Shown: piece after piece, positions 4,417-37,894 of the stretch
Layout of the letters: every line of letters begins with the position of its first letter
How positions within the stretch are numbered: position 1 is the stretch's first letter
Assembly (NCBI GenBank): GCA_000991245.1
Contig: LBRD01000001.1
Location: forward strand, 135,467 to 177,804
Source of the DNA: Parcubacteria group bacterium GW2011_GWC1_36_108
Lineage (GTDB): Bacteria; Patescibacteriota; Minisyncoccia; Moranbacterales; GWC2-37-73
DNA: 42,338 nucleotides
Direction of reading: 5' to 3'
Position numbers and translations under genes: made by a program
Notes under the pieces: model-generated
The model's input: the letters and a program-made list of their open reading frames with translations, nothing else
What the model was told of the DNA's origin: nothing
Database searches by the model: none

Positions 4417-6954
4417 TTAAATCACAACAATATTAATCAATTTTCCCGGAACAAAGATAATTTTCTTTATTTCTTTTCCATCAGTAAAAACCTTAACCTT
4501 ATCACTTTCAAGTGCTGTTTCTTTCGCTTCATCTTCAGTGACATCATTCGCCACCATCAAACGTTCACGCACTTTTCCATTCACTTGCACAACCATTTCA
4601 ATTTCTTCATCCTGCAAATATTTTTCATCAACCTTAGGCCAGTCCTGCAAGAAGATGGATTCTTTATGTCCAATTTTTTCCCAAAGTTCTTCAGTGATAT
4701 GCGGAGCAAACGAACTCAAAAGGGTTAGAAGTGTTTCATAATGTGATACTGAAATAGATGGTTCTTTTTCCATTGCATTAACCAGAATCATCATCGCAGA
4801 TATGGCCGTGTTAAATCTAAAATTTTCAATATCCTCAGTAACCTTTTTAATCGTTTTGTGAAGAAGTGAAGTTATTTTTTTATCACTTGCTATATTATCA
4901 ATTGTCGTTTTTTCTTGTAAATTCCAAACCTTATCCAAAAATCTTCGCACGCCACTTACCCCAGAGGTACTCCAGGCAATACTTTGAGTGAATGGTCCCA
5001 TAAACATTTCATACAAGCGCATCGCATCAGCGCCAAATTCACCAATAATTTCATCAGGATTAACAACATTATTCCAACGCTTACTCATTTTTCTTCCATC
5101 TTCAGCCATGATAAGTCCTACGTGTAATAATTTTTTAAACGGTTCAATTGTTGAAACCACTCCAATGTCGTATAAAAACTTATGCCAAAAACGTGCATAC
5201 AGGAGATGACGCGTAGCGTGTTCAGCACCACCAACATACAAATCAACTGGCATCCACTCTTTCTCAAGTTCTTTATTAACTAATTCCTTATCATTTTTTG
5301 GATCAATATATCGCAAATAATACCAAGAAGATCCTCCCCATTGTGGCATAGTATTTGTTTCCCTTTTCCCTGGTCCTCCACATTTTGGACAAATAGTATT
5401 CACCCAATCAGTGATTGCTGCAAGCGGACTTTCTCCTGTACCAGTCGGTTCATAATTTTCAACGTCAGGAAGCATCACTGGCAATTGCTGCTCAGGAACT
5501 GCAACAGCTCCACATTTTTCACAATGAACAATTGGGATTGGCTCCCCCCAATAACGCTGACGAGAATACACCCAATCGCGCATTTTATAATTAACTTTTC
5601 TTTTTCCAATTTTTTCTTTTTCCAACCAATCAGCCATTTTTTCCCGCGCCTGTTTGGAAGTTAATATAGAGTAACTGCCTGAATTTATCAGTATACCATC
5701 AACAGTATATGCCCTTTTAGAAATTATTTGACTAGCCAAAATAGATCTAATGCATTCATCATTCGTATCGTTCAAAATCTGCGCCTTTAACATTTCAATT
5801 CCCTCATATGTCTGTCCGTCAGGTTTACCAAGCAAGGGTTTTCTATTCCGGCCATATTCAGGAATAATTGTATATTTTATTTGAAGCTCTTTTTTATTTG
5901 CGAATTCAAAATCCCTTTCATCATGCGCCGGCACTGCCATTACTGCACCTGTGCCATATCCACCAATAACATAATCAGCCACAAAAAGCGGGACAGCCTC
6001 ATTAGTAAAAGGATTTATAACATTAATCCCCTCTAATTTTTTGCCAGTTTTTTCTTTTTGCAATTCAGTTCTTTCAAGATTTGTTTTTTTGTTTGCATCA
6101 GCAACGTATTGTGCAACCTCTGCATAATTTGAAATTTTGTCTTTGAGTTTTTCAATAATTGGATGCTCTGGAGCAACCACAGCATAGGTAATTCCAAAAG
6201 CAGTATCAATTCTGGTAGTATAAACTTCAATTTTTTCATCACTATCCTTAATTTTCATTTCAAATTGAACACCTTCACTTCTTCCAATCCAATTCTTTTG
6301 CTGATCAACAATCATATCTTCCCAATCCAATTCTGAACTATCCAAATCGTACAATAATCTATCAGCATAATCTGTCATTTTTAAAACCCATTGTCTCATC
6401 GGTTTTTGCTCAACTTCACTGCCACAACGTTCACATTTTCCATCCTCCAAATCCTCATTGGAAAGTCCGGTCTTGCAACTTGGACACCAATTGATCGGTG
6501 CATTTGATTCATAGGCCAACCCTTTTTCAAAAAGTTTCAAAAATATCCATTGCGTCCATTTATAATATTGAGGATCAGTTGTGTTAATTTCTCTATCCCA
6601 ATCATAAGTAAAACCAAACATCTCTAATTGTTTCTTATAATTCGCAATACTTTTAGCTGTAAAAATATTAGGATTGGTTTTATTTTTTATAGCATAATTT
6701 TCTGCTGGCAAACCAAAAGCATCCCACCCCATTGGATGAAGCACACTATATCCATTAAGCATCTTAAACCGACTCACAACATCAGTTGCGATATATCCTT
6801 TCGGATGACCCACATGCAACCCCACACCAGATGGATACGGAAACATATCCAGAGCATAGAATTTTTTCTCGCGAGAATAATTTTTATAAGTTCCATTATC
6901 CTCCCAATATTTTTGCCATTTTTTTTCAATGTCGCTTGGTATATATTTTTCCAT
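4417..6954 (-). CDS. leuS: Leucyl-tRNA synthetase
   Basis: 845 aa with class I motifs: HVGHPKGY (HIGH-like) and KMSKRWNN (KMSKS). Overall LeuS architecture. Confidence 0.97.
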   Translation of the reverse strand: MEKYIPSDIEKKWQKYWEDNGTYKNYSREKKFYALDMFPYPSGVGLHVGHPKGYIATDVVSRFKMLNGYSVLHPMGWDAFGLPAENYAIKNKTNPNIFTAKSIANYKKQLEMFGFTYDWDREINTTDPQYYKWTQWIFLKLFEKGLAYESNAPINWCPSCKTGLSNEDLEDGKCERCGSEVEQKPMRQWVLKMTDYADRLLYDLDSSELDWEDMIVDQQKNWIGRSEGVQFEMKIKDSDEKIEVYTTRIDTAFGITYAVVAPEHPIIEKLKDKISNYAEVAQYVADANKKTNLERTELQKEKTGKKLEGINVINPFTNEAVPLFVADYVIGGYGTGAVMAVPAHDERDFEFANKKELQIKYTIIPEYGRNRKPLLGKPDGQTYEGIEMLKAQILNDTNDECIRSILASQIISKRAYTVDGILINSGSYSILTSKQAREKMADWLEKEKIGKRKVNYKMRDWVYSRQRYWGEPIPIVHCEKCGAVAVPEQQLPVMLPDVENYEPTGTGESPLAAITDWVNTICPKCGGPGKRETNTMPQWGGSSWYYLRYIDPKNDKELVNKELEKEWMPVDLYVGGAEHATRHLLYARFWHKFLYDIGVVSTIEPFKKLLHVGLIMAEDGRKMSKRWNNVVNPDEIIGEFGADAMRLYEMFMGPFTQSIAWSTSGVSGVRRFLDKVWNLQEKTTIDNIASDKKITSLLHKTIKKVTEDIENFRFNTAISAMMILVNAMEKEPSISVSHYETLLTLLSSFAPHITEELWEKIGHKESIFLQDWPKVDEKYLQDEEIEMVVQVNGKVRERLMVANDVTEDEAKETALESDKVKVFTDGKEIKKIIFVPGKLINIVVI

Positions 6955-7001
6955 AGGTCTACAAACTTACAAAATTATACAAAAATACAAAACAAAAAAG
7001 A

Positions 7002-7100
7002 GTAATCGTATTGTTTATTTTTACACTTAAAACAAGTCTCCTTGGTGTTATGTCAAAAGTTGCAATTGTTTTTCTGTGAAAAAATAAACAATACAATTAC
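7002..7100. repeat. Copy 1 of a long-hairpin element with conserved core (second copy at 23654-23748)
   Basis: The arms at 7002-7026 and 7076-7100 are complementary (about 22 of 25). They enclose a 49-nt core, ttaaaacaagtctccttggtgttatgtcaaaagttgcaattgtttttct. The element lies between a folD terminator-like hairpin and the leuS -10 box. Confidence 0.8.
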
Positions 7101-7187
7101 GACAATCCATTTTTTTAGAAGAAAGACAAAAAAACAACCCTTATTAAGTTGTTTTTATAATATCATACAATATACGCAAGATCAATA

Positions 7188-8030
7188 CTATTTTTCCTTT
7201 TGTTGAGCCTCAAAGGCTAAAAAAGTGTTTTCTAAAAGACAAGCAATCGTGAGTGGTCCAACCCCACCTGGAACAGGCGTGATGAAACCAGAAAGAGCTT
7301 CTGTTGAAGCAAAATCAACATCTCCCAAAACACTGTCGCCCACTTTTTCAATACCACCATCAACAATAATAGAGCCATCTTTAAACATTTGACCCCCAAG
7401 AAGCCCTGGCGAGCCCACAGCGCTTACCACGATATCTGCACCCTTAATTTCCCCGAGTTTCGAAGGTATATTTTCAGTCAAAACATACCCTGAAGCTATA
7501 TTTTGACGCTCAAGCATCGCGCTCATTATTTGCCCAAATTCAGCTGAATTTGAAATTACGATACCAGTTTTTCCATTTAATTTTTCACCAGCACTTTCAA
7601 TTAAATGCATGATTGCACGGGGAAAAACTGGTAAAATACCAGTTTCACCTTTCAAGAAAAGTTCAGTGTTTGTCGGATGAAATCCATCAACATCTTTTTT
7701 AGGATCAATACTTGATATGATTTTTTGCGTATCAAAATTTTTCGGCAAAGGAAGTTGCACGATTATACCATTAACACTGTCATCAGCATTAAGTTTTTCA
7801 ATTTGAGATAAAATATTTTCCTGAGAAACATTTTCAGAAAAATCATAGCGAACAAAATTCATGCCAATTTCCTTGGCCTTTTTTTCTTTAAGATTTACAT
7901 ACAACTGCGATGCCTCATCCTTGCCCACCAAGATGACAGCCAATTCTGGTTTTTGAGCACACATTAAAATATCGTTTTTCAAACGATTTAATATTTTTTC
8001 CGCCACCGGTTTTCCGTAAAGTAATTCCAT
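7188..8030 (-). CDS. folD: Bifunctional methylenetetrahydrofolate dehydrogenase/cyclohydrolase
   Basis: 280 aa. The start MELLYGKPVAEKI, the NAD(P) fold GKTGIVISNS and PVPGGVGPLTIA are canonical FolD features. Confidence 0.95.
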   Translation of the reverse strand: MELLYGKPVAEKILNRLKNDILMCAQKPELAVILVGKDEASQLYVNLKEKKAKEIGMNFVRYDFSENVSQENILSQIEKLNADDSVNGIIVQLPLPKNFDTQKIISSIDPKKDVDGFHPTNTELFLKGETGILPVFPRAIMHLIESAGEKLNGKTGIVISNSAEFGQIMSAMLERQNIASGYVLTENIPSKLGEIKGADIVVSAVGSPGLLGGQMFKDGSIIVDGGIEKVGDSVLGDVDFASTEALSGFITPVPGGVGPLTIACLLENTFLAFEAQQKEK

Positions 8031-10885: not shown

Positions 10886-11197
10886 TTACACATTCATAAG
10901 CTTCAAAAACATTTGATTGTATTCCTTGATTTTCTTTGCATTGACGCTATAGTGTCTGAATGTTCCCTCTCTTTTTTCCACCAAAAGATCAACACTTTTC
11001 AACTTAGAAATATGATGGGATGTTAGATTCTGAGGAAGTTTTAATTTACTATGAATATCAGTTACATTCAAAGAACCTTTCTCAAGCAACACCAAAATTC
11101 TCAACCTGTTTTCATCAGACACAATTTTTAAAAACTTGTTAACTTCCAAAAACTGCTTATCTGGCTGCTTACCAATTTTTTTCACTGCTTTTTTCAT
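10886..11197 (-). CDS. ArsR/SmtB-family metalloregulator-like transcription factor
   Basis: 103 aa with a winged-HTH pattern: DENRLRILVLLEKGSLNVTDIHSKLKLPQNLTSHHISKLKSVDLLVEKREGTFRHYSV. Confidence 0.85.
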   Translation of the reverse strand: MKKAVKKIGKQPDKQFLEVNKFLKIVSDENRLRILVLLEKGSLNVTDIHSKLKLPQNLTSHHISKLKSVDLLVEKREGTFRHYSVNAKKIKEYNQMFLKLMNV

Positions 11198-11221: not shown

Positions 11222-11311
11222 AATTCGCTCCTACCAATTAAAAGGTAGTAAAATTGCCAAAATGGCTTTTTAAATTAATTCGTTCCTACCAATTAAAAGG
11301 TAGTAAAATTG
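11222..11311. promoter_or_regulatory. Two 35-bp direct repeats, each containing the palindrome CTACC-N8-GGTAG. Candidate operators upstream of the ArsR-family gene.
   Basis: 11222-11256 (aattcgctcctaccaattaaaaggtagtaaaattg) and 11277-11311 are identical except for one base. The repeat period is 55 bp, located 25-115 bp upstream of the arsR-like start. Confidence 0.5.
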
Positions 11312-11424
11312 TTAAAATACCTGCTTTTAATAATTATTTTTGTTAATTAGAGGCACTTCTATCACTTATACGCAACATCAATTGAAAATATTTCATAATT
11401 TAATATATTCAATGCCCATTGTTA

Positions 11425-15918: not shown

Positions 15919-18876
15919 TCATCTTTTAATAGAAATTACTAGCACTTTTTCATCCAATTTAAGCTCTTTAGCCAAATCAGCATCTTGGCAAAATCCTTCA
16001 GTAATGGCATCAGCAAGGGTTTCTTTGGCAATTAAGGCATTAAATTTCTCAAGTTCTTCCGATTTTCCATTATAGCACACTTTGATGCGATTGTCAACAT
16101 CATAGCCTGCTTCTTTACGCATCTCTTGGATGTGCCGAACTATTTCTCGCGCCACTCCCTCTTGAGCCAATTCTTCAGTTATCTCAACATCCAAAATAAT
16201 ATTATCCTGCTGATTTTCATCAACAAGAATTTCTTTCACATTAAGTTCTTCCTTAATTATTTCTGCAAGTTCATCAAGAATAACTTCCTTGATTGTCACT
16301 TTTGCAAGCGGTTGACGAACTTTAATTTTAGCTTGAGAGCGAAGTTGCAAACCTTGAGTCACAATCTCACGAACACTGTGCATTTGATCATTCAAAAGCT
16401 CATCGACGTGATGATAATCTCCCGTCGGCAAATCAGCCAAATGCACAGACTCCTTGCCAGCCTGCCCGCCGGAGCTTTGCGAAGGCTGGGTCAGATTTTT
16501 ATAAATTTCTTCAGCGATAAAAGGTGAAAACGGTGCCATCATTTTAGCCAGTGTCACAAGCACGTGATGAAGCGTTGCATATGCTTCATTTTTGTCGCCA
16601 TCATTTTCTGATTTCCAAAAACGCTTGCGCGATCTTCGAACATACCAGTTTGACATATCATCAATAAATTTTGGAAATGCTCGAGCAGCTCGATGCAATT
16701 CATAATTTTCCATTCCACTGTGAACTGCTATCACCAAGGTGTTAAGTTCAGAAAGAATCCATCGATCCAACAAATTTGTTGCGGTTGAATGCTGAAATTG
16801 ATCATTATGTTCCCACTTATCAATATTAGCGTACAGCACAAAAAAGGAATACGAATTCCAAAGCATTCGCATCATTCCTCGCACAATTTCCGCCACATCT
16901 TTTTCAGAAAAATTCAAGTTTTGCGCAGCCACTACTGGCGAGCTCATTAGATAAAATCTGATCGAATCCGCACCATATTTATCAAGCATGAGTTGTGGAT
17001 CAGGATAATTTGAAAAACGTTTACTCATTTTCTTTCCATCCTCTGCCAAAACTGTTCCGTTCACAATTACATTTTTAAACGCTGGTGCTTTTTTAACTGC
17101 ACTGGCAATAATATGCAAATAATAAAACCAGGCACGTGTTTGATCTACGCCCTCCGCAATAAAATCAGCTGGAAAATTATTTTCAAATTGCTCAGCATTT
17201 TCAAAAGGATAATGCTGTTGAGCATACGGCATTGAGCCAGAATCAAACCAAGTATCCAACACGTCTGGGATGCGATGCATATCCTGCCCGCAAGCATCAC
17301 ATTTAAGCACAATTTTATCAACAATATGTTTATGCAAATCTGTTATTTTTTCACCGCTAGCAGCTTCCAGTTCCATTACACTGCCAAAAACTTTTTGTTC
17401 GCCACATTCGCATTTCCAAATTGGTATTACAGAAGCCCAAAAACGCTGACGCGAAATTGACCAATCACGCGCACCTTCAAGCCATTTTCCAAAGCGCCCC
17501 TCTTTTATGTGCTGCGGAGACCACTTGATTTCCTTAGCCAAATCAAGTGCATCTGATTTTATATCAGCAACTTTAACAAACCAAGAACTAGTTGCATAAT
17601 TCATCAGTGGAGTGTCACATCTCCAACAATGAGGATAACTATGTTCGTATTTTTCTTTTGCAAAAAGAGTTCCATTTTTGGCTAAAAATTTAATAATTTC
17701 CACATCAGTCGCAGTTCTATCATCGGTTGGTTTTATATGCATTCCAGCAAATTCTCCCGCCTCTTTTTTTATAATTCCATCCATTCCCACATGTTGAACA
17801 AATGGCAAATTCTTTTCTTTACCCAAATTCAAATCATCTTCACCGAATGCTGGAGCAATATGAACAACACCAGTTCCATCCTCAGCACCCACAAAATCGC
17901 CGCCTACAACTTTCCAACCATTTTCAAAATTTTCAATATCAGATTTTGCATAATAGTCAAAAACTGGTTTATATTTCTTACCAATAAGCTGCGAACCTAA
18001 AACTTCGCGTACAATTTCAATTTTTTTATCCTTAAACAAATCACTCGCTCTATCTTTGGCTACAATAAAAATTTCTTCTGAAAATGTTCCATCCTTTTCC
18101 AAATTTGTTGCCTGCCTGTCCGGTAGGCAGGTTTCTACATATACATAATTCATCTCTGGATTAACCGCTAGAGCAACATTCCCAATCAGTGTCCATGGTG
18201 TTGTCGTCCAGGCCAAAATAGAAGTTCCAGGTTCATCAACAAGTTCAAACTTTGCAATAACAGACAAATCTTTAACATCAATATAACCCTCACTAACTTC
18301 TTGTTGAGAAAGAGTAGTTTCGCAGCGTGGACAAACATGCATTGAGCGATAGCCTTCATAAATAAGACCCTTATTCCAAAGTTCTTTAAAAACCCACCAT
18401 ACTGATTCCATATATGGCAAATCCATCGTCTTATATGCATTATCCATATCAGCCCAACGTCCCAAACGATTAATAACAACTTTCCAAACATCTACATATT
18501 CCAAAACTTTGCTACGACAAAGTTCGTTAAATTTTTCCACGCCTAATTTTTCAATTTCACTTTTAGCTTTTGAGCCTAATTCTTTTTCAACGATATTTTC
18601 AATTGGAAGTCCATGACAATCCCACCCCCATTTTCTTTCCACGTAAAAACCACGCATCGTCCAATAGCGCGGCACCACATCTTTCATTGTTGAAGCAACC
18701 AAGTGCCCGTAATGAGGTGTACCTGTTGCAAAAGGTGGTCCATCATAAAAAGTGTATTTCTGCGAGTCCTTACGAATTTCCAAAGATTTTTCAAATATTT
18801 TCTCCTGAGCCCAAAATTTTAAAATTTCTTCTTCCATCTTCGGGAACGATTGTTTTGGATCAACTTTCTTAAACAT
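15919..18876 (-). CDS. ileS: Isoleucyl-tRNA synthetase (type 2-like, no C-terminal zinc-finger tail seen)
   Basis: 985 aa with the HIGH region PHYGHLV, KMSKRFSNY (KMSKS) and an editing-domain WTTTPWT motif. Confidence 0.97.
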   Translation of the reverse strand: MFKKVDPKQSFPKMEEEILKFWAQEKIFEKSLEIRKDSQKYTFYDGPPFATGTPHYGHLVASTMKDVVPRYWTMRGFYVERKWGWDCHGLPIENIVEKELGSKAKSEIEKLGVEKFNELCRSKVLEYVDVWKVVINRLGRWADMDNAYKTMDLPYMESVWWVFKELWNKGLIYEGYRSMHVCPRCETTLSQQEVSEGYIDVKDLSVIAKFELVDEPGTSILAWTTTPWTLIGNVALAVNPEMNYVYVETCLPDRQATNLEKDGTFSEEIFIVAKDRASDLFKDKKIEIVREVLGSQLIGKKYKPVFDYYAKSDIENFENGWKVVGGDFVGAEDGTGVVHIAPAFGEDDLNLGKEKNLPFVQHVGMDGIIKKEAGEFAGMHIKPTDDRTATDVEIIKFLAKNGTLFAKEKYEHSYPHCWRCDTPLMNYATSSWFVKVADIKSDALDLAKEIKWSPQHIKEGRFGKWLEGARDWSISRQRFWASVIPIWKCECGEQKVFGSVMELEAASGEKITDLHKHIVDKIVLKCDACGQDMHRIPDVLDTWFDSGSMPYAQQHYPFENAEQFENNFPADFIAEGVDQTRAWFYYLHIIASAVKKAPAFKNVIVNGTVLAEDGKKMSKRFSNYPDPQLMLDKYGADSIRFYLMSSPVVAAQNLNFSEKDVAEIVRGMMRMLWNSYSFFVLYANIDKWEHNDQFQHSTATNLLDRWILSELNTLVIAVHSGMENYELHRAARAFPKFIDDMSNWYVRRSRKRFWKSENDGDKNEAYATLHHVLVTLAKMMAPFSPFIAEEIYKNLTQPSQSSGGQAGKESVHLADLPTGDYHHVDELLNDQMHSVREIVTQGLQLRSQAKIKVRQPLAKVTIKEVILDELAEIIKEELNVKEILVDENQQDNIILDVEITEELAQEGVAREIVRHIQEMRKEAGYDVDNRIKVCYNGKSEELEKFNALIAKETLADAITEGFCQDADLAKELKLDEKVLVISIKR
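18111..18131. repeat. 21-nt GC-rich palindromic mini-element inside ileS
   Basis: cctgcctgtccggtaggcagg forms a 6-bp CCTGCC/GGCAGG stem with a 9-nt loop. It is identical to 33170-33190 in uvrC, and the identity extends to 24 nt with the following ttt. Confidence 0.9.
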
Positions 18877-22905: not shown

Positions 22906-23169
22906 AAGATTTAAATCTTTTTTATTGATTATTGAAGAACAAATTTTTTTGAGAAGTTTCTGTTTGAGAATCCATATTTTCTCTGAATTTTTTTGTTTCT
23001 TGCGCGGGACTCGCGTGACCACAAAAAATTTTAGTTATCCTTCAAAATCTATGATTTTGTCCGGATAACATATACCCGGAGGGTGAAGCTAGAAAATATG
23101 AGATTCGAGTTTAACTTCGAATAAAAATTTTGTTCTTCAATAATCAAGACTATTCTTAAAAACACTAAT

Positions 23170-23628
23170 ATGATTTTAACAACTCACGCCCTTGTCGGAG
23201 CTGCCATTGGGAAATATATTCATAATCCCATAGCTTTAACGGCTATCTTAATTCCCCTTCATTATACTCTGGATATTTTTCGCCATGGGGAATATTTAAA
23301 TAAAAATTCGACTTTCAAAAACACAACCTGGAAAGTACTACTTGATCTTTTTATTGGGGGTACAATTATTCTTTTTGCAATTTATGCTAAAAATATATCC
23401 CCCTCAATTTCCAGCTCAATAATAATAGGTGCAATTATCTCAATGTTTCCTGATTTGTTAACAGTACTCTATTGGAAACTTAATTTCAAATTTTTAGAAA
23501 AAATATACAAATTTCATCAATGGGTTCATAAATTTCCACATGATTCAAAAGAAAGACAATGGACATTTAGAAATGCTAGGAATGATATTATTTTCTCAAT
23601 ATTGGCAATTTTCTTATTATTTCTATAA
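23170..23628 (+). CDS. Hypothetical 4-TM membrane protein, possibly a DUF457/YdjM-like metal-dependent membrane hydrolase
   Basis: 152 aa with His-containing motifs (TTHALVG, HYTLDIFRHGEY, FPDLL, HQWVHKFPHD). No clear RBS. The family assignment is weak. Confidence 0.45.
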   Translation: MILTTHALVGAAIGKYIHNPIALTAILIPLHYTLDIFRHGEYLNKNSTFKNTTWKVLLDLFIGGTIILFAIYAKNISPSISSSIIIGAIISMFPDLLTVLYWKLNFKFLEKIYKFHQWVHKFPHDSKERQWTFRNARNDIIFSILAIFLLFL

Positions 23629-23653
23629 CCCTTCTGCTAAATAAAAATTTTGA

Positions 23654-23748
23654 GGATACTTTTTTGTTTTTGCACTTAAAACAAGTCTCATTAGTGTTAC
23701 TGTCAAAAAGTTGCAATTGTTTTTCTGTGCAAAAACAAAAACGTATCC
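23654..23748. repeat. Copy 2 of the long-hairpin element with conserved core
   Basis: The arms at 23654-23675 and 23727-23748 are complementary but differ in sequence from the copy 1 arms. The core at 23676-23726 matches the copy 1 core except for 2 substitutions and 2 single-base insertions. Confidence 0.8.
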
Positions 23749-23773
23749 GAATAAATTTTTCGCATTAGCAATG

Positions 23774-26566
23774 TTACAAGTATTTCGCAGTCCAACTCTT
23801 CTTATCTTTTTTTAATTGATCTGGCGTACCAGCAAAAGTAAGATAACCACCAAGGTCGCCACCATCCGGTCCAAGCTCAATCACCCAATCAGCATCGCGC
23901 ACCACATCAAGATTGTGTTCAACCACAATCACAGTATTTCCTTTATCAACCAATGCATTAAGAACACTCAACAATTTTCTAATGTCATCAAAATGAAGTC
24001 CTGCGGTTGGTTCATCCAAAATATACAAAGTACTGCCAGTTGATTTTCGCGCAAGCTCAGTGGCAAGCTTAATACGTTGAGCTTCTCCACCAGAAAGATT
24101 TGTTGCACTTTGACCAAGTTTCAAATATCCAAGTCCAACATCTTCCATAGTTTTAAGTTTTTCAGCAATAAGCGGATGCCTTGCAAAAAATCGCAGTGCT
24201 AAACGCACATCCATATCCAAAATCTGCGCCACGTTAAAACCTTTGTATTCTATTTCAAGAGTTTTTTTGCTAAATCTTGTTCCTCCACAAGCTTCACATT
24301 TCACATACATATCAGGCAAAAGATGCATTTCTATTTTCTTTGAACCTTCACCTTGGCACACTTCGCAGCGCCCACCTTTCATATTAAAACTAAAGCGACT
24401 AGCAGTATAATTTCTGTTCTTTGCCTCCTCCACGCCAGCAAACAAATCGCGAATATGTGAAAACACTCCGGTATAAGTTGCTGCATTTGAGCGCGGGGTG
24501 CGTCCGATTGGATTTTGATTAATACTGATAACCTTTTTAATATGCTCAAATCCTTTGATTTTTTTGTGCTTGCCAGGAAGATCTCGTGTGTTATAAAAAT
24601 GTCGCGATAATGCTTTGGCTAAAATATTTTTTACCAAAGTTGATTTTCCACTGCCTGAAACTCCACAAATAACCACAAATTTTTCCAATGGAATACTGAT
24701 ATCAACTTTTTTCAAATTGTTTTCTTCTGCCCCGAGAATTTCAATGAACTTACCATTTCCACTTCGGTTTTTTTTCTTTTCTGAAACTTTTTTCTTTTTA
24801 GATATATATTGTGCGGTAAGATTTTTAGATTTAATAAGTTGATTATAATCTCCTTCAAAAACTACGATCCCACCTTCTTCTCCTGCCCCCGGACCCATAT
24901 CAACAATCCAGTCAGCAGCTTTAATAATGCTTTCATCGTGCTCAACCACAATCAGGGAATTGCCAACATTTTGCAGGGCTTTAATAGTATTAATAAGTTT
25001 TTCCGTGTCTCGAGAATGAAGTCCAATGGAAGGTTCATCTAAAACATACACAATCCCCATCAATTGAGAATTTAACTGTGCGGCCAAACGAATACGCTGA
25101 GCCTCGCCACCAGAAATTGTTTGTGCAGATCGTCCCAAATTTAAATATTCCAACCCAACATTTTCAAGAGCACTAAGACGCTGCAAAATTTCTCGCACAA
25201 TCGGTTTACCTATACTTTTTTCCTGTGTTGTTTGAACCCAATTTTCAACATCCTCAAAAAATTCTCGCAGATGGGTTATACTCATTGAAACCATCACGTC
25301 TATTGTTTTTCCTTGAACTTCCACTGCCAAAAATTCTTTCTTAAGACGCTTGCCATCGCAAGATGGACAAGTATGCGCAGTCATATATTTTTCAATTTCA
25401 CTGCGCACATAATCAGATTTTGTTTCTTGATATTTTTTTTCTAATGCCGGAATTACGCCTTCAAATCCATCATTACCATAAAGCACAATTTTCAAATTTT
25501 GCTCGGATAATTTTTTGACCGGCACGTTCATTGAAAATTTATATTTTTTTGCAACATCTTTAAGTGTCAAAAGTTGCACACTTTGTCCGCTTATTTTTCC
25601 ACCAGATTTGCTCCAAGGTTGAATTGCACCCTCCATCAAAGAAAGATTTTTATTTGGGATAATAAGTTCTTCATTTACTTTTAAAGTGTAACCTAAACCG
25701 GAGCACAAATCGCATGCTCCTTCTGGACTATTAAAAGAAAAATGTCTTGGTGTCACTTCTTTTATTTTTACCCCGCACTTGGAACAAAAGAAATCTTGAT
25801 TATAGTTACGTTCTTCAATATTATCAAACAAGATCTTCACTGAATTGCCACCATTTTTCATTGCTGTTTCAATAGAATCCAACATTCTTTCCACATCAGG
25901 TTTTTTCTTATCAAGTACAATTCTATCAATAACCATCTCAATATCAGTTTCAATTTCACGTTCACTGAGCATCATAGCTTCCGCCACAGTAAACATTTTT
26001 CCATTGAAACGCACGCGAGCATAGCCCATTTGTGCAATATGTTTTAGCAATTCTTTTCCAACAGCAATATCTTTCGGCTTTGCCAAAATAGCAATTTGCG
26101 TGTGATGAGAAAATGTTAAAATTTCATCCAAAATTTCCTGATTACTTCTTTTTTGCATTGATGTCCCACACTCCGGACAATGCAAAACTCCAATTTTTGC
26201 ATACATAATGCGCAAATAATCATACACCTCAGTCAATGTTCCCACTGTTGAACGAGGTGAACGTGAAATACTTTTTTGATCGATTGAAATCGGAGGAGAA
26301 AGATTTTCAATTTTATCCACATCAGGCTTCACTGATGGATCCAAAAAATTTCGCGCATATGAAGAAAGACCTTCCATATATCGACGGTTTCCTTCGGCAT
26401 AAATAGTATCAAAAGCCAAGGATGATTTCCCAGAACCCGAAAGACCCGTGATTACCACGAACTTATCCCGTGGGATATTAACATCAATGTTTTTCAGGTT
26501 ATTGACTCGCGCACCCTTAATAATAATCTCATTTGTCTGTTTCGAGTTTTCTTTTTTAGAAGCCAT
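23774..26566 (-). CDS. uvrA: Excinuclease ABC subunit A paralogue (the more divergent copy)
   Basis: 930 aa with two ABC modules ([23 protein letters not shown]), LSGGEAQR twice, and zinc modules CPECG...CSKCG and CEVC...CEAC. Confidence 0.93.
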
Positions 26567-32769: not shown

Positions 32770-34074
32770 TTATTTTAAAGAGTTTTTGCTGCGTAATTTT
32801 CGGTGATAAGAGATTGCAAAACGGTGAGCTTCATCCATAATGAATTTCACGAGATTGTCATCTTGAAGTACATTCACAATTAGTGAATTGGCATTTATTT
32901 GTAGATTAGTATTATATCTAATATCAAGTTTTTTGCGTGTCGGACCTTTTGCTACACCAACAATCCCAACCACTAATCCCAGCTCTTCGTGCAGCAATTT
33001 CTCTGCCATATTAACGTGTCCCTGTCCGCCATCTAGTAAAATCAAATCTGGCATCGCCCAATCATTATTAAATCTTCGCGACAAAACTTCTTTCATCATC
33101 GCCACATCATTACTACCATTTACTGTTTTAATTTTAAACTTACGATATTGAGATTTGTTAGCTTGCCCACCTGCCTGTCCGGTAGGCAGGTTTTCAAAAA
33201 CTACCATTGAGCCAACAGCGTGATCGCCTGAAATATTGGAGATATCATAAGCCTCTATACGGGCAGGCTTTAGCTTATTAGGCGTTAGCTTTTTAGAAAA
33301 TTCAACAGGCTCAAAATCTCTTGTCATCAACGCGACGTCGCGAATATGCTGCAGGGCAAAAATTTTGTTTCGCAAAACTGCCGCTTTTTCAAATTCATTT
33401 TTTTTGGCAAAAGTTTGCATCTCTTTTTCCATTCTTGAAATCAAACTTCTTTTCTTGCCCTGTAAAATCATTTCTATTCCGCGGATATTTTTTTTATAAT
33501 CAACCTTAGAAATAGCATCACTGTACGGTCCAGGACAAAGACCGATTTGAAAATCCAAACATCCCTTTTCAGTTTTTTGTTTACCCGCATGAAAAGGAAA
33601 AATCCTGCGAATAATTTTAAGTGCAATCTGCATCTGTTGCTTGCTCGTATATGGACCGTAAATAGCTTTTAGCTTATAACTTTTAGCTTCTAGCTTTTCA
33701 AGATCAATATCGGTTTTCCTAAAAATCAAAAATTTTGGAAATTCTTCTTTAGTTACAACAAAATAAGAAAATGATTTATCATCCTTTTCCAAGGTATTAT
33801 ATTTCGGCTGATGTTTTTTAATTAGATTGCTTTCCAAAATCAAAGCCTCCAGCACTGAATCAGTTTGCTCAAAATCAATGTCAGCCACTTGAACCACCAT
33901 CAAACCAATCCACTCACTTCTGCCTACCACAATATCCCCTCGAAAATACGATCCCACGCGGCTTTTAAGATTAGTCGCCTTACCAATATACAAAATCTTG
34001 CCATTTTGATCACGGAAAAAATACACCCCCGGCGTTATAGGCAATTCTTTAATTTTATCGCTTATTATTGACAT
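32770..34074 (-). CDS. uvrC: Excinuclease ABC subunit C (short form, 434 aa)
   Basis: It has an N-terminal GIY-YIG (PGVYFFRDQNGKILYIGKATNLKSR), a UVR-like helix, and a central endonuclease region (IEAYDISNISG...YRKFKIK). Confidence 0.93.
   Translation of the reverse strand: MSIISDKIKELPITPGVYFFRDQNGKILYIGKATNLKSRVGSYFRGDIVVGRSEWIGLMVVQVADIDFEQTDSVLEALILESNLIKKHQPKYNTLEKDDKSFSYFVVTKEEFPKFLIFRKTDIDLEKLEAKSYKLKAIYGPYTSKQQMQIALKIIRRIFPFHAGKQKTEKGCLDFQIGLCPGPYSDAISKVDYKKNIRGIEMILQGKKRSLISRMEKEMQTFAKKNEFEKAAVLRNKIFALQHIRDVALMTRDFEPVEFSKKLTPNKLKPARIEAYDISNISGDHAVGSMVVFENLPTGQAGGQANKSQYRKFKIKTVNGSNDVAMMKEVLSRRFNNDWAMPDLILLDGGQGHVNMAEKLLHEELGLVVGIVGVAKGPTRKKLDIRYNTNLQINANSLIVNVLQDDNLVKFIMDEAHRFAISYHRKLRSKNSLK
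33170..33190. repeat. 21-nt GC-rich palindromic mini-element inside uvrC
   Basis: cctgcctgtccggtaggcagg, identical to 18111-18131. Here it encodes LPTGQAG, a different frame from ileS. Confidence 0.9.
33664..33698. repeat. Degenerate heptamer array (agctttt-type, 5 units) inside uvrC
   Basis: agctttt agcttat aactttt agcttct agctttt. It encodes EKLEAKSYKLKA. Confidence 0.8.
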
Positions 34075-34610: not shown

Positions 34611-37541
34611 CTAAGTTATACTCTTCGGCTTCAAAACCTGCCGCAGATATTTGGCGGTGTAACTTTCTTTGTAATATTTGATAACTTCTTCTGGTGGACC
34701 CGTTACGACAATTTTTCCACCGCCATCGCCACCTTCAGGTCCCATATCAATAATCCAATCTGCCGTTTTAATCACGTCCATATTGTGTTCAATAACAACC
34801 ACGGTATTTCCTGCATCAACAAGACGATTGAGCACGGTTAAAAGTTTTTTAATATCATCAAAATGAAGACCGGTGGTTGGTTCATCTAAAATATACAAAG
34901 TGTCTCCTGTTGCGCGACGAGAAAGTTCCGAGGCAAGTTTTATTCTTTGCGCTTCGCCTCCAGAAAGGGTGGTTGCGCTTTGTCCAAGTTCAATGTACCC
35001 CAAGCCAACTTCTTCGAGGACTTTTAACGGTTCATAAATTTTTGAAAGTGCACCAAAAAATTCCACACCTTCTGAAACTGTCATCGCTAGCACTTCAGAA
35101 ATATTCTTGCCTTTATATTTAACTTGTAAAGTCTCACTATTATATCTTTTGCCACTACAAACATCGCACGGCAAATAAACGTCAGGCATAAATTGCATTT
35201 CGATTTTAAGATATCCTTCACCACTGCAATTGTCGCAACGTCCGCCAGCCACATTGAATGAAAATCTACCCGGACCATATCCTCTAAGCTTAGCATCTTT
35301 TGTCTGCGCAAACAGTTCGCGAATATGAGTGAAAAGACCAGTGTAAGTGGCAGGATTTGAGCGCGGCGTACGACCAATCGGAGATTGATCAATCATAATA
35401 ACTTTATTGATATTTTCGATTCCAATAATTTCATTATGTTTCGCAGGCACATCAAGTGCACGATGCAATTTGTTGGCCAATGCCTTGTACAAAGTTTCTT
35501 CTACCAATGTTGATTTTCCACTGCCAGAAACTCCAGTAACACAAGTAAAAACCTTAAGTGGAAATTCCACTGTCACATTTTTAAGATTATGTTCACTTGC
35601 TCCACGCACCGTGATGCTTCTTTTTCTTTTCATTTGCCTTCTAAATTTTGGAATTTCAATTTCAAGCTCGTGGCGTAAATATTTTCCCGTCAATGATTTT
35701 GGATTATTAATAACATCTTGGGGCAATCCTTGTGCCACAATCTCGCCACCATGCTTTCCAGCTCCTGGTCCAATATCCACCAACCAATCAGCAGAGCGCA
35801 TCATTTCCTCGTCATGTTCAATCACAATCAAGGTATTACCTATTTGTTGTAGTTGTCTTAATGTTTCAATAAGTTTCGCATTATCACGAGCATGTAGTCC
35901 AATAGAAGGCTCATCTAAGATATATAAAACTCCAACCAATTGTGATCCAATTTGAGATGCTAAACGTATTCTCTGCGATTCTCCACCAGACAAAGAATAT
36001 GCTGCTCGACCAAGAGTCAGATAATCCAAACCAACATTATTCAAGAAAACTAAGCGCGCAACAATTTCTTTTAAAATTCTACCAGCAATCAATTCCTCTC
36101 TGGTAGTTATTTTTAAATTTTTGAAAAATTCTATACATTGCCAAATACTAAGCGCTGAAATTTCATAAATATTTTTACCCCCAACACTAACAAGCAAGAC
36201 ATCACTTTTATATCTTGTTCCCTTGCAAGTCGAACAAGGTTTTTGCGACATATATTTTTCAATGTCAGTGCGCACTGCATCAGAAGTTGTCGTGCGATAT
36301 CTTTCCTGTAACCACGCCACCACACCCTTCCAACGCACATTATAATGACCGCTGCCACTTTTGAAGTGATATTTAACTTTTATCAAATCCTCATCCTCAG
36401 TTCCATACAACAAAATATCAATTTTATCTTTTGATAAATCCCGAAGTCTTTTATTATCTGGAATACTGTAATATTGCGCAACAGCCTTAAGTACTGTTCC
36501 TTGATAGTTATTAGGTTTAAAACTCCAAGGCATAATAGCTCCTTCACCGATAGTTTTGTTTAGATCTGGCATAACACGCGCAGGATCAATTTCTTTTTTC
36601 ATACCCAATCCTTCGCAACCTTCACAAGCGCCATAGGGGGAATTAAAAGAAAAAAGACGCGGCTCCATTTCAGGAAATTCAATATCATGAATAGGACAAG
36701 ATAAATTCTGATTAAAAATCTGCTCTACTGCACATATATCATCAACTTTTTTATTTTTTGAAATTTTAGATTTTAATCCTAATTCCTCATTCCTAATTCC
36801 TAATTTCTGTCCTATGCATTTTACCTTCACAATCCCGTGCGAAAGTCTGAGTGCTTTTTCAACTCCTTCAAAAATTCTACTGAGATTTTCTTCATTAACA
36901 GCAATATTGTCAACAATAATATCAATGCTGTGTTTATTATATCTCCCTAATTTTATATCTTTAAAGTTTTCTAATCTTTCCAATTTTCCATCCACAATTG
37001 CCTCTGAATAACCACGTTTCCACATATCATCCAACATAGATAAGTATTCACCTTTTCTTTCGCGTACAATTGGCGAAGAAATTTCAATTATTTGCGATTT
37101 GCTTTTTCCACCCATGTCCAAAATTCTGTCCACAATTTCATCAGTGGAAAGTTTTGAAATTTCTCGTCCGCAAATACTACAATGAGGTATCCCGACTTTA
37201 GCAAAAAGAAGTCTTAAATAATCATGAATCTCAGTGACTGTCCCAACAGTTGATCGCGGATTATGAGAAGTCGATTTTTGATCTATAGAAATAGCTGGCG
37301 AAAGTCCCTGGATATAATCAACATCAGGTTTATCCATTTGCCCTAAAAATTGTCTGGCATAACTTGATAAACTTTCCAGATATCGTCTTTGTCCTTCAGC
37401 AAAAATAGTATCGAATGCCAAAGTTGATTTTCCGCTCCCTGAAAGACCTGTAAAAACAATGAATTTGTTCCTAGGCAATTCCAGATCAATATTTTTTAGG
37501 TTATGCTCACGCGCACCCTTGATGATTATTTTATCTTCCAT
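34611..37541 (-). CDS. uvrA: Excinuclease ABC subunit A (the canonical-looking copy)
   Basis: The start at M51 of the track ORF (MEDKIIIKGAREHNLKNI) gives 976 aa. AEGQRRYLESLSSYARQFLGQMDKPDVDYIQGLSPAISIDQKS is close to the classical UvrA pattern. Two ABC modules and the zinc motifs are present. Confidence 0.95.
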   Translation of the reverse strand: MEDKIIIKGAREHNLKNIDLELPRNKFIVFTGLSGSGKSTLAFDTIFAEGQRRYLESLSSYARQFLGQMDKPDVDYIQGLSPAISIDQKSTSHNPRSTVGTVTEIHDYLRLLFAKVGIPHCSICGREISKLSTDEIVDRILDMGGKSKSQIIEISSPIVRERKGEYLSMLDDMWKRGYSEAIVDGKLERLENFKDIKLGRYNKHSIDIIVDNIAVNEENLSRIFEGVEKALRLSHGIVKVKCIGQKLGIRNEELGLKSKISKNKKVDDICAVEQIFNQNLSCPIHDIEFPEMEPRLFSFNSPYGACEGCEGLGMKKEIDPARVMPDLNKTIGEGAIMPWSFKPNNYQGTVLKAVAQYYSIPDNKRLRDLSKDKIDILLYGTEDEDLIKVKYHFKSGSGHYNVRWKGVVAWLQERYRTTTSDAVRTDIEKYMSQKPCSTCKGTRYKSDVLLVSVGGKNIYEISALSIWQCIEFFKNLKITTREELIAGRILKEIVARLVFLNNVGLDYLTLGRAAYSLSGGESQRIRLASQIGSQLVGVLYILDEPSIGLHARDNAKLIETLRQLQQIGNTLIVIEHDEEMMRSADWLVDIGPGAGKHGGEIVAQGLPQDVINNPKSLTGKYLRHELEIEIPKFRRQMKRKRSITVRGASEHNLKNVTVEFPLKVFTCVTGVSGSGKSTLVEETLYKALANKLHRALDVPAKHNEIIGIENINKVIMIDQSPIGRTPRSNPATYTGLFTHIRELFAQTKDAKLRGYGPGRFSFNVAGGRCDNCSGEGYLKIEMQFMPDVYLPCDVCSGKRYNSETLQVKYKGKNISEVLAMTVSEGVEFFGALSKIYEPLKVLEEVGLGYIELGQSATTLSGGEAQRIKLASELSRRATGDTLYILDEPTTGLHFDDIKKLLTVLNRLVDAGNTVVVIEHNMDVIKTADWIIDMGPEGGDGGGKIVVTGPPEEVIKYYKESYTAKYLRQVLKPKSIT
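36776..36810. repeat. Degenerate heptamer array (attccta-type, 5 units) inside uvrA2
   Basis: aatccta attcctc attccta attccta atttctg. It encodes QKLGIRNEELGL. Confidence 0.8.
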
Positions 37542-37622
37542 AAATTTTATTAGAAATGCAAAAACCTTCCCCTTTTGAGGTACTAAAATTACTACGCTAA
37601 ACCATTCTATTACTTTCCATAC

Positions 37623-37651
37623 ACTATACGACAAAGCTTCAAATTTATCAA
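37623..37651 (-). promoter_or_regulatory. Candidate sigma-70 promoter of uvrA2
   Basis: The minus strand reads TTGATA (37651-37646), a 17-nt spacer, then TATAGT (37628-37623), about 80 nt upstream of the ATG at 37541. Confidence 0.5.
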
Positions 37652-37654
37652 TAC

Positions 37655-37839
37655 AAAAAGCAAGGGCATGAAATTTACACCGTTGTGACATGCGTAGGTA
37701 AAATACAAGCGATGAGCGTTAAAAAATTTTGAAACGTAGCGCCCGCCAGTAGGCGTAGGCGCGCAGTGTAAATTTTAGCGAAGAGTGAAGTATTTGCCCC
37801 AGCAATGAGCAAGGTGTAAATTTTATGCCCTTGCTTTTT
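37655..37839. repeat. 27-bp inverted repeats (26 of 27 match) bracketing 131 bp with an internal GC-rich hairpin. Either MITE-like or a structured element.
   Basis: The left arm aaaaagcaagggcatgaaatttacacc (37655-37681) faces the right arm ggtgtaaattttatgcccttgcttttt (37813-37839). A third partial copy, agtgtaaatttta, is at 37765-37777. An internal hairpin gcgcc-cgcc-agta-ggcg-ta-ggcgc lies at about 37740-37764. Confidence 0.7.
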
Positions 37840-37845
37840 CCTAAC

Positions 37846-37877
37846 GAAAAAGAGGAGCCATTAGCTCCTCTTTTTTT
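37846..37877 (-). terminator. Bidirectional terminator after the DsbA-like gene
   Basis: aaaaa-agaggagc-catta-gctcctct-tttttt. Confidence 0.7.
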
Positions 37878-37894
37878 AAACAGTAGAATAAACT

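Follow-up and report, generated by a model that had tools for sequence, protein, structure and literature searches.

The window analysed here, a stretch of 42,338 nt from Parcubacteria group bacterium GW2011_GWC1_36_108, a member of the Moranbacterales, contains two intergenic hairpins with a common core. Copy 1 is located at 7002-7100, between the stop of folD (7188) and the start of leuS (6954). Copy 2 is located at 23654-23748 in the identical orientation, 25 nt past the stop of uvrA (23774), and faces the end of a plus-strand ORF of 152 aa (23170-23628). The genes leuS (4417-6954), folD (7188-8030) and uvrA (23774-26566) are all encoded on the minus strand. These gene calls match those of an earlier note on this DNA, and the positions and placement that it had given for the two hairpins hold. 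The core that it had described was found at 7027-7075 in copy 1 (49 nt) and at 23676-23726 in copy 2 (51 nt), with three substitutions and two single-base indels between them. In the window, each half of this core has exactly two occurrences, where shuffled sequences predict 0.00.

Both copies fold into hairpins of about 95 nt, as had been proposed, with z = -4.7 to -6.1 on either strand and 0 of 200 shuffles as stable. This extent was too short: a near-invariant GA lies outside each side of the hairpin, and the units run from about 6994 to 7108 and from about 23646 to 23756. The full unit of copy 1 (6994-7108, plus strand) consists of a base motif, a long irregular stem and the 49-nt apex, and matches our covariance model at 6998-7104 with 102.7 bits. 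Its 5' arm (7002-7026) carries the stem segments P1 GTAATCGTA and P2 TTGTTTATTTTT, an unpaired A and CAC, and folds onto the inverted 3' arm (7076-7100) with a single C.A mismatch at 7007/7095. In the core, P3 pairs AAAACAA (7029-7035) with TTGTTTT (7066-7072) below an apical CUU/AAG stem. The 5' GA of a basal tandem G.A block stands at 7000-7001 and its partner GA at 7101-7102. Copy 2 (full unit 23646-23756, plus strand, 107.9 bits) is built alike, with a 5' arm reading GGATAC T6 G T5 GCAC at 23654-23675, the inverted 3' arm at 23727-23748, and the basal GA at 23652-23653 facing GA at 23749-23750. The 7-pair extension of the helix by P3 is real and covaries elsewhere, for instance as AGAAATGA/TCATTTCT in the related locus L024. 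The arms had been described as different between the copies, each complementary to its own partner. The pairing stands, but the arms are not unrelated, as they follow a common plan of a variable 6-9 bp, T5-N-T5/6 and (G/T)CAC.

Copy 1 sits between the leuS start and a terminator-like hairpin that follows folD on the minus strand (7130-7156, AAAAACAAC-N9-GTTGTTTTT and a T run). This hairpin lies outside the repeat and is kept in the window and in loci L023, L024, L026 and L031. A promoter-like TTGATC-N17-TATTAT (minus strand, 7157-7185) is found directly after the folD stop, followed by the hairpin and its T run, and both the box and the hairpin are kept in four related genomes. Together they could form a leader or attenuator of leuS and not only a terminator of folD.

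Other repeated or palindromic sequences were observed in the window. A tandem 55-nt repeat, each unit with the palindrome CTACC-N8-GGTAG, lies at 11222-11331 upstream of an ArsR-type HTH gene (10886-11197), is kept at L023 3213-3325, and is probably a pair of operator sites. At 37655-37839, between two genes of the minus strand, a 185-bp segment has 27-nt inverted repeats at its ends (AAAAAGCAAGGGCATGAAATTTACACC, 96% complementarity); a clean terminator follows it at about 37848-37878, and the segment is possibly a MITE of another family. A 25-nt inverted repeat, also 96% complementary (22925-22949 / 23123-23147), extends from the rsmI start region to upstream of the 152-aa ORF. Two UvrA-like paralogues stand 11 kb apart (23774-26566 and 34611-37691), and most long direct repeats of the window are UvrA-like ABC-ATPase segments.

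A dispersed repeat with a compensated stem

The hairpin had been presented as occurring twice, and read depth shows instead a dispersed repeat. In the run holding this genome, with contigs mapped on copy 1, the depth is about 2900 over the core and 135 in the single-copy flanks, a ratio that gives about 20 copies per genome of about 1 Mb. Contigs of this run break inside the repeat, and contigs ending in this way could explain assembly breaks in bins of CPR bacteria. To look for further copies of the core, we scanned a two-block pattern once over species-representative genomes and once over metagenomes. This gave 11 more distinct copies, all from Parcubacteria/Moranibacteriota assemblies or groundwater metagenomes. 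A covariance model, R1, added L024, L031 and L049, whose cores diverge from the pattern and had escaped it, and the total came to 15 full copies from at least 6 genomes or metagenome bins. A weak model match at L023 3087-3188 was rejected as unrelated sequence upstream of operator repeats. On viral contigs, the combined pattern gave 0 matches and two half-core patterns gave 13 loci, none of them fitting the model. The closest FolD relatives (83-67% identical) also come from Moranbacteria bins. At the gathering threshold, Rfam 15 has 0 matches in the window and thus no family for either hairpin; ranked by E-value around copy 1, the best matches were miRNA-like hairpin models, far below threshold. 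The literature searched yielded no publication in which structured RNAs or hairpin repeats are described for Moranbacteria/Parcubacteria. In the three small metatranscriptome runs (SOLiD) available for the sampling site, nothing of the organism mapped to 19.5 kb.

The same plan was observed in every copy on the strand displayed here, the plus strand of the window, for a unit of about 110-112 nt. At the base, a P0 of 2-5 bp covaries between U-A and C-G. Between P0 and P1 lies a 2x2 GA/GA block, near-invariant on both sides in 14 copies. P1 is variable (6-9 bp, consensus GAATAC/GTATTC), with a bulged base of the 3' arm above it. P2 pairs T5-N-T6 with A5-N'-A5 around a bulged C, and N/N' is found as A-U, C-G, G-C and U-A. 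Above P2 come CAC/GUG, a small internal loop, P3 and an apex of about 30 nt, whose short CUU/AAG stem becomes CUC/GAG or CCU/AGG in other copies. Two single-base bulges of the 3' arm, a C and a T, are conserved. Most copies have a second GA/GA block beyond P0, so that the flanks read 5' RAGYGA ... GARCGAT 3', that is, two tandem G.A blocks with 2 base pairs between them, and the unit extends about 8 nt beyond the hairpin. In L001, Watson-Crick pairs take the place of both G.A blocks, and in L017 that of the outer one, which shows that the bases of these blocks face each other in a helix.

The arms of the added copies remain complementary. In an alignment of 14 copies that was fitted to the structure of the model, 98% of 458 stem cells are paired and two-sided changes are present in 20 of 33 pairs; an independent MAFFT/RNAalifold run gave two-sided changes in 10/31 pairs. 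None of 500 shuffles reached any of five covariation measures, and pairing fell to about 50% when the partner was slid along. The core is the best conserved part (0.92; 0.90-0.92 identity for the apex) and P1 (0.74) and the flanks the least; for the core, the search pattern required parts of the sequence to be invariant. Between positional orthologues, which differ by 21-27%, the stems carry compensatory changes while the apex is almost unchanged. The combination of a stem held by compensatory change with a conserved apex indicates a structure-dependent RNA or DNA element, as the earlier note had anticipated. Altogether, both hairpins are a real, selected structure and belong to a dispersed repeat.

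The two strands of the unit are not equivalent. The G.A blocks exist on the displayed strand only, and of the bulged single bases, 25 belong to the 3' arm and 2 to the 5' arm. G.U (or G.T) pairs on the displayed strand outnumber those on the other by 7 to 2 in this family and by 7 to 2 in a second one described below. RNA folding was more stable for the displayed strand in 12/13 copies, whereas energies calculated for DNA were similar for both strands and do not separate them. Together with the GNRA loops of the second family, the G.A blocks, G.U pairs and bulges mark the plus strand of the window as the folded one.

A second family, and gain and loss at orthologous spacers

Searching with the base motif and complementary arms, we detected four distinct elements of a second family (family 2), at L009 4779-4886, L012 9661-9766, L048 13559-13667 and L050 11001-11109; the window holds none. 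All four are antisense to their neighbours. Their flanks and stem plan are those of the first family (family 1), and their apex, of 62 nt, is different: at a three-way junction, it divides into a covarying stem, closed by the GNRA loop GACA or GAGA, and an invariant 11-bp hairpin. Rfam found only tRNAs on these loci. A further relative or third form of the scaffold is located at L012 11877-12054. As the two families are alike in ends and stem and unlike in apex, the scaffold is common and the apex modular. The earlier description of the repeat as the opposite of a MITE is thus true within family 1, whose stem varies most at its outer end and which lacks a target-site duplication, and fails across the superfamily, where one interior is exchanged for another between common ends.

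The genes around folD-leuS keep their order, and the content of the spacer varies among genomes. Family 1 is present there in the window, in L024 (GW2011_GWD2_38_11) and in L031; the spacer is empty in L023 (89 bp) and L033; and in L050 it holds a family-2 element. L026 and L028 have only remnants of the arms, around a different palindromic insert of about 180-190 bp. In L026, this insert (10946-11121, also in L028) takes the place of the family-1 core, and its inner arms are CCAGAATTTCT / AGAAATTCTGG and CTAAAATTTTCC / GGAAAATTTTAG. The spacer between leuS and an NTP-transferase gene is empty in the window (48 nt), whereas L049 has a family-1 copy there and L048 a family-2 element. L005 and L008, both downstream of a YgjP-like gene, are positional orthologues of each other. 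For the uvrA site of a relative in run X6, the comparison is one of length only, 153 nt vs 175 nt between the two genes. We found no target-site duplication or flanking direct repeat in 14-19 copies. A T-rich direct repeat around the whole folD-leuS insert, TTGTTTTT, was rejected as a duplication, being of low complexity and able to explain equally a deletion in L023.

Copies within a genome also resemble each other. L024 has three double changes in P3 and is nearer its paralogue L005 (0.90) than its positional orthologues, and the internal loop reads UCC in all five GWD2_38_11 copies and UCU in most other genomes. These likenesses suggest that family 1 copies undergo concerted evolution or turnover.

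Some copies are interrupted. In one copy of this genome, an inserted GC-rich palindrome separates the core from the 3' arm, and in L002 the 3' arm is lost and another GC-rich hairpin is in its place. A mini-palindrome near-identical to the first of these inserts, CCTGCCTGTCCGGTAGGCAGGTTT, occurs in two identical GC-rich copies in the window (18111-18134 and 33170-33193), within two long ORFs of the minus strand (15919-18876 and 32770-34074). Such mini-palindromes give the impression of a second mobile family, RPE-like and able to sit in frame.

Orientation and possible roles of the repeat

The genes next to the repeat are unrelated housekeeping genes (folD/leuS, uvrA, metG/tatD, ygjP, mraZ, rsgA, prmC, ybeY and others), and in 12/14 copies the flanking genes are opposite to the displayed strand. 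This strand has a negative GC skew in 13/14 copies, the skew of the window being about -0.2, and with orthologous sites counted once, 11 of 12 sites have the same polarity. L001 adjoins two head-on genes, and its orientation matches the regional skew and not those genes. As for transcription signals, scans for promoter and terminator consensus at both copies of the window gave nothing above shuffles, and no conserved promoter or terminator was found inside or beside the unit across copies. The TTGACA that had been pointed out on the minus strand of the core is not conserved (TTGAAA, TTTAAA and TTAACA are seen in other copies), and a sigma-70 promoter at this place was therefore rejected. The AAGGAGA of the same strand becomes AATGAGA, AAAGAGA or AGGGAGA, and with this variation and immediate stops in several copies, a small ORF starting at a GTG after this SD-like motif was also discarded. 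A riboswitch or gene-specific leader was rejected as the neighbours are unrelated housekeeping genes mostly on the opposite strand. An intrinsic (Rho-independent) terminator was rejected because the scan detected none at either copy and the stems reach 25-30 bp and are rich in A/T; on the displayed strand, a U tract follows the hairpin in only about 6-7 of 19 copies. The repeat is not a gene-specific regulator, a canonical terminator, a classical MITE or a strict REP.

The reading to which we tentatively lean, with somewhat less than even confidence, is that both hairpins belong to an undescribed interspersed structured repeat of Moranbacteria/Parcubacteria, similar to REP, REPIN or ERIC elements, whose active form would be the folded displayed strand. 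The unit would function in folded, single-stranded form and be recognised by a protein encoded in trans, the common base serving as a handle and the apex giving specificity to each family. Spreading might occur as in REP/REPIN-type systems, with single-stranded DNA handled by a strand-specific enzyme, and copies would persist mainly in the orientation that rarely exposes the active strand, a survivor bias. For the neighbouring genes, the repeat would be at most a passive intergenic hairpin. A polarity that follows the replichore, and a unit that carries no promoter along, speak for such a life cycle at the DNA level, while the conservation of the apex in place, the GNRA loops and the G.U pairs favour RNA. 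The REP-like reading is weakened since no transposase or partner protein was found, target-site duplications and a GTAG/CGTC tag are lacking, both strands have similar folding energies as DNA, and the polarity is the reverse of that of IS200/IS605. It is further weakened by orthologues whose apex is far better conserved than stems and flanks, which resembles purifying selection on a functional RNA and not selfish DNA, and by the GNRA tetraloops, the three-way junction and the 1.5-4.5% of G.U pairs, which are typical of RNA.

These last features lead to another reading, which we consider possible but doubtful: the copies would be multi-copy small structured RNAs made from the displayed strand, with ends paired through the G.A blocks as a protein-binding, nuclease-resistant handle, a conserved apex that binds a target or a protein, and family 2 as a paralogous RNA on the same handle. 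It accounts well for loops conserved over covarying stems, positional orthologues included, for the tandem G.A blocks, for the GACA and GAGA loops, on a covarying stem, at the three-way junction of family 2, for the excess of G.U pairs (14 vs 4 in both families together) and stabler RNA fold on the displayed strand, and for the fact that a streamlined genome of 1 Mb keeps about 20 copies. It does not account for a unit with which no conserved promoter or terminator travels, nor for single copies that are dispensable as judged from presence or absence at orthologous spacers; the near-uniform antisense, C-rich orientation is unexpected for independent sRNA genes, Rfam has no match, and family 1 has few G.U pairs (1.5%). 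Since 12/14 copies can be co-transcribed with their neighbours only as the reverse complement, and some copies, within 0-17 nt of a stop codon or 8-17 nt of a start codon, must be part of mRNAs, the repeat might otherwise be a cis element of the gene-sense (minus) strand. As a hairpin between cistrons or in a 3'-UTR, it would cause termination, insulate or stabilise the transcripts, or serve as a cleavage site for RNase III. The reverse complement is indeed also a strong hairpin, with a U-rich stretch after copy 1. We find this quite improbable, as the strand-specific features are on the other strand, a conserved U tract after the hairpin is lacking and the consensus scan gave no terminator; in addition, a separate conserved terminator-like hairpin precedes the repeat at folD-leuS, element-free relatives keep the gene order, and a simple hairpin has no need of a 50-nt conserved apex. 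Finally, size, inverted arms, intergenic scatter and presence or absence at orthologous sites would fit a classical cut-and-paste MITE moved by a DDE transposase, the hairpin being a by-product of terminal inverted repeats. The missing target-site duplications, an outer stem that is the most variable part and the strong orientation bias contradict it, and the compensatory changes, the asymmetric conserved bulges and the G.A blocks would be left unexplained, making this origin very improbable.

CPR bacteria have highly streamlined genomes of about 1 Mb, and to our knowledge almost no non-coding elements have been described in them. The family 1 apex is near-frozen even between genomes that share no more than 72-82% identity in FolD. 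With about 20 or more occupied spacers, a compensated stem, this near-frozen apex and a scaffold common to family 2, the repeat is unlikely to be inert. A broader proposal, which we regard as unlikely though worth stating, is that the elements are modular CPR-specific RNAs or ssDNAs with a G.A-clamped handle for one protein and exchangeable apices (at least two families), in dozens of replichore-oriented copies per 1-Mb genome, and would represent a new RNP or nucleic-acid-guided system and not junk. The covariance model R1 and the family-2 pattern provide a searchable model, with which a partner protein could be sought by co-occurrence and the origin of strand polarity in folded elements addressed.

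Comparison with known repeats and folded substrates

A REP is defined as an imperfect palindrome of 20-40 nt preceded by a GTAG (or CGTC) tag (PMC8266576, PMC3733652). Its enzymes read the bulges and mismatches of folded ssDNA in a strand-specific manner, and REPIN hairpins evolve by compensatory change (PMC8266576, PMC3116915). Like REP/REPIN elements, which are associated with RAYT/TnpA_REP Y1 enzymes, the Moranbacteria repeat consists of short interspersed intergenic hairpins without target-site duplication, with strand-specific irregularities, compensatory change and long vertical persistence (PMC8266576, PMC3116915). Its stem irregularities are conserved and strand-specific, as seen from the bulge counts, the C and T bulges and the G.A blocks. 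Unlike REPs, it forms one hairpin of about 110 nt and not a 20-40-nt REP or REP doublet, has about 20 copies and not hundreds, and has its structured strand on the leading-strand template. Neither strand has a GTAG or CGTC tag beside the stem, the flanks being RAGYGA / GARCGAT, and a strict REP was rejected for the absence of this tag and the size of the unit. Within a family, the apex and not the ends is best conserved, unlike in REP/REPIN (0.90-0.92 for the family 1 apex vs 0.74 for the outer stem), and between families 1 and 2 the ends and stem are alike and the interior differs. PF01797 (RAYT/Y1) was absent from the genes listed for L023-L050, about 0.8 Mb of scattered loci read. The polarity is opposite to that of IS200/IS605, where the active strand is on the lagging-strand template.

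ERIC/IRU, Correia (NEMIS) and Bacillus bcr1-type elements are imperfect palindromes of 100-160 nt, intergenic, often transcribed and present in tens of copies, like the Moranbacteria repeat. They also share with it whole-length conservation, compensatory substitutions and presence or absence between relatives, and their function is largely unknown or consists of effects on mRNA processing. Compared by description, they are not known to be related to it in sequence, and they differ in phylum, in having TA or similar duplications and in their conserved termini, and from these descriptions we know of none with a tandem G.A base, a modular apex between families or such a strand polarity. If the repeat is only REP- or ERIC-like, it would still be the first such family characterised in this radiation, of modest general interest.

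An integron attC site (RYYYAAC / GTTRRRY boxes, array, IntI) was rejected, as there is no AAC/GTT at the stem base and the copies are isolated between core genes. Unlike attC, the repeat has no R''/R' (AAC/GTT) boxes, cassette array or integrase context, its neighbours being housekeeping genes, and its conserved 50-nt apex has no attC counterpart. Like attC sites, IS200/IS605 ends, relaxase oriT and parvoviral hairpins, however, it conserves structure and not the sequence of the stem, and as in attC and other folded ssDNA substrates, extrahelical bases and mismatch bubbles mark the active strand and the orientation relative to replication matters.
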